Shown in pieces: positions 15,945 to 16,073 of a DNA stretch of 17,524 nucleotides. This DNA is from a virus (taxonomy: Duplodnaviria > Heunggongvirae > Uroviricota > Caudoviricetes). The translations under genes were made by a program, and so were the position numbers. The notes below the pieces were generated by a model, which saw only the letters and a program-made list of their open reading frames with translations, was not told the DNA's origin and did not search any database. Within the stretch, counting starts at the first letter, position 1; every line of letters starts with the position of its first letter. The stretch lies in the IMG/VR virus record IMGVR_UViG_2713896784_000011; one strand, written 5' to 3'.

Positions 15945-15972
15945 TTGACAATAATGATAATGTTTATATAGA
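15945..15972 (+). promoter_or_regulatory. Promoter-like element (TTGACA - 16 bp - TATAGA), divergent from the holin
   Basis: Perfect -35 hexamer at 15945-15950 with an imperfect -10 lacking the final T. The reverse strand carries TTGTCA...TATTAT at the same place. Weak evidence. Confidence 0.25.
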
Positions 15973-16023
15973 AAGGTTCCCGATGTGTGTTACATATCAT
16001 TTCTCCACGGGGAATATCCCCAC

Positions 16024-16073
16024 GCCAGCGCAGACTCTTTTACCCGTTCTCTTCTGCGCTGGCTCTTTTTTAT
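16024..16073 (+). terminator. Plus-strand hairpin plus T-tract (11-bp perfect inverted repeat)
   Basis: GCCAGCGCAGA (16024-16034) pairs perfectly with TCTGCGCTGGC (16053-16063) across an 18-nt loop, followed by TCTTTTTTAT. The long loop makes a protein-binding inverted repeat an alternative reading. Confidence 0.45.

Follow-up and report, generated by a model that had tools for sequence, protein, structure and literature searches.

In a 17,524-nucleotide stretch of viral DNA (Caudoviricetes; IMG/VR record IMGVR_UViG_2713896784_000011), called the window here, the plus strand at 15945–16073 very probably carries the gene for EcOnc32, a trans-acting small RNA (sRNA) that is bound by Hfq and is a relative of the sRNA Esr41. 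The EcOnc32 locus is already known, and because it was reported in 2014, little is added here as discovery. What goes beyond the published record is a proposed paralogy with Esr41, a link between a difference in the seed and a hybrid with the entC mRNA, and a conserved Fur-box-like sequence in the promoter. EcOnc32 is bound by Hfq in vivo, ends in a terminator with a U-tail, has an unpaired seed, and shows pairing at the ribosome-binding sites of mRNAs, all of which are features of Hfq-dependent trans-acting sRNAs.

Detection and anatomy of the EcOnc32 RNA

Positions 15385–17524 of the window are 100% identical to prophage Sp3 of Escherichia coli O157:H7 Sakai in reverse orientation, and subtracting a window coordinate from 917651 gives the Sakai coordinate. 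Tree et al. 2014 (Mol Cell 55:199; PMC4104026 Table S2) place EcOnc32 in Sp3, on the Sakai minus strand at 901574–901662, a peak that corresponds to 15989–16077 on the plus strand of the window. The same table gives a peak in five out of five Hfq-crosslinking datasets (Hfq-CRAC; crosslinking and analysis of cDNA), a predicted rho-independent terminator, and a Northern band of ~112 nt. The EcOnc32 signal is 6.5e7 and, within the part of Table S2 covered, is exceeded only by that of AgvB1, which places it among the strongest unannotated Hfq signals in that part of the table for which no function is assigned. In the portions of PMC4104026 considered here, the record of EcOnc32 is one of detection, with no homologue, promoter, regulator, or function assigned. 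A search of the main texts in the literature collection used here found no mention of EcOnc32 or ECs0817, and a literature search for a Fur-regulated prophage sRNA in enterohaemorrhagic E. coli (EHEC) found no paper.

The reverse complement of the published EcOnc32 Northern probe maps to 15983–16017 on the plus strand. Crosslinking, ligation, and sequencing of hybrids with RNase E (RNase E-CLASH; Waters et al. 2017, PMC5286369) adds EcOnc32 fragments at 15992–16015, 16042–16064, and 16052–16071, all on the plus strand, and the 3' end of the last one is the end of the T-run. A preliminary description of this DNA, made from its sequence, had anticipated a plus-strand RNA of roughly 90 nt here; that RNA is EcOnc32, as detected by strand-specific Hfq crosslinking, by Northern blot (~112 nt), and by RNase E-CLASH. 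The parts of the gene are as follows.

15945..15950, plus strand: −35 hexamer TTGACA, from sequence; invariant in alleles A and B and also found upstream of the Esr41 gene
15950..15968, no strand assigned: Fur-box-like sequence AATAATGATAATGTTTATA between −35 and −10, 15/19 against the consensus GATAATGATAATCATTATC; putative function
15967..15972, plus strand: candidate −10 TATAGA after a 16-nt spacer, from sequence; TATAAA in allele B
15979..16071, plus strand: EcOnc32 transcript; 5' end approximate (predicted at 15979–15983), 3' end from a CLASH read; matched at 15979–16073 by model R1, a covariance model built from EcOnc32 variants only
15982..15998, plus strand: stem-loop 1, GAUGUGU-GUU-ACAUAUC, from minimum-energy folds; its 3' arm lies within the target-pairing region
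15992..16012, plus strand: seed or target-pairing region ACAUAUCAUUUCUCCACGGGG, the sRNA half of the top two CLASH hybrids; single-stranded core at 15999–16008
15999–16008, plus strand: single-stranded linker AUUUCUCCAC, from the fold
16009..16021, plus strand: stem-loop 2, GGGGA-AUA-UCCCC, from folds; aligned by Infernal with the GGGG/CCC hairpin of Esr41
16024..16071, plus strand: probable intrinsic terminator with an 11-bp stem, an 18-nt C/U-rich loop, and the tail UCUUUUUU (16064–16071)

The most conspicuous part is the terminator. The perfect 11-bp inverted repeat that had been described earlier, with its 18-nt loop and T-tract, is present as GCCAGCGCAGA/TCTGCGCTGGC with arms at 16024–16034 and 16053–16063, followed by TCTTTTTT at 16064–16071. 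It is the sole perfect inverted repeat of at least 11 bp with a loop of 3–30 nt in the whole 17.5-kb window; block shuffles give 0.07 such repeats per window, and one with a T tail was seen in none of 300 shuffles. Eight of the 11 pairs in the stem are G-C, and the tail holds a run of six U residues (U6). The stem and the U-run are as expected of an intrinsic terminator and the 3' end of the RNA maps there; the 18-nt loop is atypical of one. The consensus terminator scan did not call it because that scan is limited to loops of 3–8 nt. On the minus strand no T-run follows the hairpin; the terminator would therefore be active on the plus strand only, and late-strand transcription should not be stopped at this hairpin.

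The fold of the 94–106-nt plus-strand RNA comprises three hairpins and has an energy of −34.9 to −38.2 kcal/mol (z ~−6.2); none of 200 shuffles was as stable. The molecule would consist of two short 5' hairpins, a single-stranded linker, and the terminator, with the U-tail serving as the Hfq site. Among variants of the gene, stem-loop 1 shows a single G-U to A-U change, and stem-loop 2 is invariant among the intact copies, in a stretch that was largely fixed by the search pattern itself.

Probable kinship with Esr41 and predicted pairing with mRNAs

A permissive Rfam scan gives a full-length alignment of 15984–16073 to Esr41 (RF02676), with a score of 32.3 bits (E 6e-4). In the reverse direction, model R1 recovers the Esr41 gene in SpLE1 of Sakai (L003 2143–2221) with 28.2 bits (E ~1e-4), the match again spanning the entire model; in the 77 kb searched it has no match besides the Esr41 gene. 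Related viral contigs totalling 607 kb yielded no further paralogue, and the extra matches there were weak (E at least 0.19). We read EcOnc32, on the strength of these sequence and structure alignments, as a diverged paralogue of Esr41 that stands outside membership of the Rfam family. A MAFFT alignment misplaced the Esr41 seed, and Infernal alignments were used instead.

The two RNAs share their general layout: a short 5' hairpin, a single-stranded UUUCUCCA seed, a GGGG/CCC hairpin, and a GCC-GC terminator with a U-tail, and Esr41 (EcOnc14) is preceded by the same TTGACA −35 hexamer. Both are Hfq-bound and both contact iron-uptake mRNAs at the ribosome-binding site. They differ in the terminator, whose stem is longer in EcOnc32 and whose loop is 18 nt there against 7 nt in Esr41, and at the place of stem-loop 1, where Esr41 has a GAUGC/GCAUC helix and EcOnc32 a distinct sequence. 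The seed reads CCACGG in EcOnc32 and CCAUGG in Esr41. The two genes also lie in different settings, that of Esr41 beside iha in SpLE1 (O-island 43/48) and that of EcOnc32 in Sp3 between moron genes and the holin gene, and the best CLASH target of EcOnc32 is entC, not cirA, chuA, or bfr.

EcOnc32 is found in four hybrids in the RNase E-CLASH data (Waters et al. 2017, PMC5286369, supplement file 9). In the best of these, the ACAUAUCAUUUCUCCACGGGG region is the sRNA half and the partners are entC (ECs0632) and ECs1655. For entC, ACAUAUCAUUUCUCCACGGGGAAU is joined to the 5' region of the gene, in a fragment that spans the entC Fur box, the Shine-Dalgarno (SD) sequence, and the AUG. Seed-restricted duplexes of EcOnc32 reach −23.2 kcal/mol with entC, with none of 2000 shuffles as good, and −21.7 kcal/mol with ECs1655, with 14 contiguous pairs and one shuffle in 2000 as good; the corresponding values for Esr41 are −14.6 and −15.1 kcal/mol. 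Both EcOnc32 duplexes cover the SD sequence and the AUG (z ~−5). The first target belongs to enterobactin synthesis, and the second is a prophage gene. At the validated Esr41 sites in cirA and chuA (CCUCAUGGAGA, ribosome-binding site) the preference is the opposite one, with −25.2 and −24.2 kcal/mol for Esr41 and −21.1 kcal/mol for EcOnc32, so that each of the two RNAs seems adapted to its own part of the iron-uptake set. For bfr, the duplex prediction gave no notable pairing with either EcOnc32 or Esr41. A full-length duplex prediction, which ignores internal structure, did no better than shuffles and was replaced by the seed-restricted duplexes.

Esr41 acts in trans and represses its targets by direct pairing, as described in the parts of Waters et al. 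(PMC5286369) drawn on here. These targets are cirA, chuA, and bfr, and Esr41 also has effects on fliC and LEE. EcOnc32 would act in trans as well, with ACAUAUCAUUUCUCCACGG pairing to the SD/AUG region of mRNAs, most clearly those of entC and ECs1655, and by analogy with Esr41 translation would be blocked. The one key base by which the seeds differ, together with the different arm of stem-loop 1, would shift the preference from cirA and chuA to entC.

Several observations weigh against this picture. The best two CLASH hybrids are supported by four and two reads. The 32 bits of EcOnc32 are far below the gathering threshold of the Esr41 family (102 bits), and an Rfam scan at gathering thresholds gives no Esr41 match at EcOnc32. 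The −10 element TATAGA is weak, and the predicted 90–93 nt fall short of the ~112 nt estimated by Northern blot, so that the start site or the promoter of EcOnc32 may be other than TTGACA/TATAGA; a second promoter-like site found by the promoter scan, CTGACT-18-GATAAT, would yield an RNA of ~104 nt. Repression of entC by EcOnc32 is suggested here, and both its direction and its reality are argued by analogy with Esr41. In addition, the covariation check that had been proposed for the hairpin was run on five variants: no pair had changed on both sides and shuffles equalled the observed values. These variants are too alike for the outcome either to support or to contradict the hairpin, and the changes at paired positions are all G-U/A-U and G-C/G-U switches. 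The hairpin energies of the diverged alleles differ by only 0.3–0.4 kcal/mol between the strands, and because they are nearly equal the strand assignment rests on the T-run and on the experimental reads.

The promoter and its Fur-box-like sequence

As had been noted in the earlier description, a TTGACA −35 hexamer (15945–15950) with a weak −10 element (15967–15972) lies about 100 bp upstream of the holin start; the holin ATG is at 15844, on the other strand, and the distance is 101 nt. TATAGA is the sole −10 candidate at a workable spacing from TTGACA, and it lacks the final T, and the consensus promoter scan therefore missed it. Transcription would start at ~15979–15983 from TTGACA, 16 nt, and TATAGA. 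The alternative site CTGACT-18-GATAAT is destroyed in allele B.

The spacer of this promoter holds the Fur-box-like sequence listed above, whose core is ATAATGATAAT, and the match of 15/19 equals that of the known Fur sites in the entC-fepB intergenic region. When one mismatch is allowed, the pattern (NATWAT)x3 has a single match in the window, where 0.01 would be expected. Across copies of the gene, a Fur-like site of at least 15/19 is present in the promoter zone of 69 out of 73, against a same-contig background of 2.8e-5 per position. Allele B has six changes in eleven bases there and still matches at 15/19. One other 15/19 match to the Fur consensus occurs in the window, at 14755–14773 at the 3' end of the Rz gene.

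That the EcOnc32 promoter is repressed by Fur through this sequence has, in our judgement, a little less than an even chance. The case is made from sequence, and two observations count against it: in allele B the Fur-like site is displaced by 3 nt and found on the opposite strand, and the Esr41 promoter, which differs from that of EcOnc32 in this respect, has no Fur-like site (12/19). A related stretch, ACAATAATGAGAATAATTTATAT, occurs in SpLE1 of Sakai (L003 252–274), ~50–70 nt upstream of the start of iha, and shares 20 of 23 positions with the spacer of the EcOnc32 promoter. The gene iha is Fur-regulated, and the two stretches may represent a shared Fur-type operator. The Hfq and CLASH data come from MEM-HEPES medium, which is termed relatively iron-limited in the parts of Waters et al. 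(PMC5286369) considered; such iron limitation fits derepression from Fur and proves nothing.

If Fur repression holds, EcOnc32 would be a prophage-borne signal of iron starvation. The further step, in which EcOnc32 is a prophage-borne, Fur-repressed counterpart of RyhB that is derepressed at low iron and damps entC, and with it enterobactin synthesis, and, more weakly, cirA and chuA, is tentative and on balance we doubt it. The likeness to RyhB would be that of a functional analogue only: with a working Fur box, both would be Fur-repressed Hfq sRNAs acting on mRNAs of iron metabolism, and Esr41 targets overlap those of RyhB according to the sections of Waters et al. (PMC5286369) used here. There is no sequence relationship, and a permissive Rfam search gave no RyhB match. 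RyhB is a core sRNA, whereas EcOnc32 is horizontally acquired. Paralogy with Esr41, pairing with entC, and the Fur-like box together lead to the hypothesis of a prophage iron-responsive riboregulator that acts on core siderophore genes. If this were true, mobile elements would, through EcOnc32 and its paralogue Esr41, re-route iron acquisition in the ~11% of complete E. coli genomes that carry EcOnc32, many of which belong to serotypes of Shiga toxin-producing E. coli (STEC) and EHEC.

Genomic setting, distribution, and rival readings

In phage orientation, the order of genes is Q, ECs_0816 (a membrane protein), a DUF3927 open reading frame (ORF), EcOnc13 on the late strand, EcOnc32 on the opposite strand, holin, endolysin, and Rz. 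The Q-dependent late transcript runs on the window's minus strand, and the EcOnc32 unit is therefore antisense to it. The following features adjoin or overlap the gene.

15629..15844, minus strand: phage-21-type holin gene, gene 1 of the lysis cassette (PF04971, E 1e-32; RefSeq annotation in Sakai and PV15-279)
15987..16385, plus strand: annotated 132-aa ORF ECs_0817 (WP_012578864.1; RefSeq), which overlaps both sRNA genes
16250..16455, minus strand: EcOnc13, STnc100-like, putatively of the PasD family (Rfam STnc100; terminator scan; CLASH fragment)
stem 16261–16279 with T8 at 16253–16260, minus strand: EcOnc13 terminator (terminator scan)

Of 5426 complete E. coli genomes, 603 carry the 156-nt EcOnc32 unit, mostly as a single copy and with at least 99% identity in 564 of them; the carriers include O157:H7, O55:H7, O26, O103, and O111 strains. 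A pattern scan of viral contigs added 68 copies. A scan of one genome per species with the pattern of seed and stem-loop 2 returned only eight chance matches in unrelated metagenome-assembled genomes, and no relative outside E. coli was found at the stringency of the pattern scan. Two alleles can be told apart, A, which is that of the window, and B, at ~87–88% identity. In B the changes are concentrated in the spacer of the promoter; in the terminator of B, one arm has gained 1 nt and the other carries a C-to-T change. Of four diverged copies, two are preceded by TerB/DUF3927 morons and two by stx2, and three adjoin a holin gene in the same relative orientation. On the chromosomes of STEC306 (L014) and CFIAFB20190172 (L015), the sRNA copies lie directly downstream of stx2 operons (e/i/l/k subtype). 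The L014 copy has an adjacent DNA-methyltransferase pseudogene, with the holin gene ~2.5 kb beyond; in the L015 copy, next to stx2i, the promoter and stem-loop 1 are gone, and what is left resembles a decaying remnant.

This setting bears on a reading in which the role of EcOnc32 is mainly in cis, the RNA pairing with late mRNA that reads through, or its promoter colliding with incoming polymerase, so that the lysis genes stay silent in the lysogen. The gene sits between moron genes and holin gene with the late operon on the opposite strand, and its RNA is fully complementary to the leader of the late transcript ~140–230 nt upstream of the holin start; the orientation next to the holin is kept in three of the four diverged copies, and convergent sRNA pairs occupy the equivalent moron site in several Sakai prophages, as described in the parts of Tree 2014 drawn on here. 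The partners recovered by CLASH, however, are trans mRNAs and not the holin leader, and the related Esr41 acts in trans from SpLE1, away from lysis cassettes. We consider a mainly cis role unlikely, and cis and trans roles could coexist. More improbable still is that EcOnc32 is an anti-sRNA, or sponge, like AgvB and AsxR, with a core sRNA as its main partner. It resembles AgvB, AsxR, and EcOnc03 in its position class, downstream of Q/pR' and morons, upstream of lysis genes, and facing a convergent sRNA, and it is an equally abundant Hfq ligand; anti-sRNA activity is reported for two sRNAs at the moron site in the portions of Tree 2014 (PMC4104026) used here. Those three RNAs are 51–60 nt long with a conserved 3' region and act on sRNAs, whereas EcOnc32 is longer (~90–112 nt), is given no homologue in the table of Tree 2014 as far as covered, has Esr41 as its best family match, and is ligated to mRNAs, none of its four CLASH hybrids being with an sRNA.

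A trans-acting, Hfq-bound sRNA also has to be set against two readings that deny an sRNA gene at this place, and to both we give only a very slight chance. In one of them the promoter drives an mRNA for the 132-aa ECs_0817, with the hairpin as an internal attenuator, and this ORF is annotated by RefSeq in hundreds of genomes. Its frame is cut to 1–108 codons in 22 of 68 copies, some of which differ by one T in the T-run, and it matches no Pfam family at cut-off; on these two grounds ECs_0817 is a probable mis-annotation. It is annotated as a pseudogene in allele-B genomes, and its mRNA would need to extend past a strong terminator and continue in antisense through EcOnc13, and the Northern band is ~112 nt rather than at least 400 nt. 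The ORF is probably spurious, and the RefSeq label at the EcOnc32 locus is that of a hypothetical protein which is probably not real. The other reading, which had been raised in the preliminary description, takes the 11-bp repeat as the site of a dimeric DNA-binding protein and not as an RNA hairpin. The dyad is perfect, its 18-bp spacer is unusually long for a terminator loop, and the terminator scan (loops 3–8 nt) made no call. The T-run, however, is on one strand only and the RNA reads stop there, the repeat sits at the terminator position of the Esr41 model, and in allele B the insertion in one arm and the C-to-T change break the dyad while a stable RNA stem with a bulge remains; the protein site is unsupported on this evidence.

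Around the holin gene, a terminator-like hairpin lies on the late strand at 15882–15910 (minus), with 11 pairs, a 7-nt loop, and then TTATTGTTGT. It falls in the interval that separates the EcOnc32 promoter from the holin ribosome-binding site, with the holin ATG ~38 nt downstream, is weaker in allele B, and might block read-through into the lysis genes in the lysogen. A promoter-like sequence, GTGCCA-16-CATAAT (9/12 matches; 16072–16099, minus), is found on the late strand just past the 3' end of EcOnc32 and, if active, would give an RNA fully antisense to EcOnc32. The gene for a SAR-type (signal-arrest-release) endolysin (15273–15629, minus) is partly masked by 85 N at 15300–15384. Q and the sRNA pair are separated by two moron genes: 16466–16624 (minus) encodes a 52-aa DUF3927 protein (Pfam E 3e-14) with a TciB-like annotation in phages 2B8 and 434, a label that stands for cell-division inhibition or colicin resistance, and 16710–17468 (minus) encodes a multi-pass membrane protein of 252 aa, for which Pfam gave no match.

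The partner that faces EcOnc32 is EcOnc13. Rfam STnc100 (RF02076) matches 16250–16455 (minus) over its full length at 37.7 bits (E 2e-6), against a gathering cut-off of 47, and a CLASH fragment of EcOnc13 maps to 16328–16347 on the minus strand. Tree 2014 (PMC4104026 Table S2, as far as covered) lists EcOnc13 in Sp3, on the plus strand in Sakai, with ~187 nt. The EcOnc13 stretch shares 98.8% identity with the part of phage 2B8 to which a 2026 preprint on Pas sRNAs assigns pasD, and genes for Q and lpxR lie within 10 kb; in the parts of that preprint considered, Q and lpxR are the synteny markers of more than 98% of PasD genes. The preprint also mentions, in those parts, matches of the Esr41 model near PasD, which are probably the EcOnc32 gene.

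The 3' ends of EcOnc13 and EcOnc32 are ~180 bp apart. Two opposed terminators at this spacing had been pointed out earlier, and the minus-strand one (stem 16261–16279, T8) is called by the terminator scan and ends EcOnc13; they are explained by a convergent sRNA pair at the moron site. In the sections of Tree et al. 2014 (PMC4104026) used here, Sp3 is given as one of the prophages with "convergent sRNAs", which occupy the moron site downstream of pR', and the window has two facing sRNA genes between the moron coding sequence downstream of Q/pR' and the next phage ORF. The EcOnc13 Northern probe as printed (TTTTCTAACACATCTATTATCAGACCGGCAACAAC, Tree 2014 Table S3C) is absent from both strands of the window, though the EcOnc13 CLASH fragment is present, which may reflect a shifted table row or an error of optical character recognition. 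Within EcOnc13, a 10-nt perfect inverted repeat (16265–16274/16326–16335) joins the terminator stem with an internal segment, which might allow an alternative fold in competition with the terminator.

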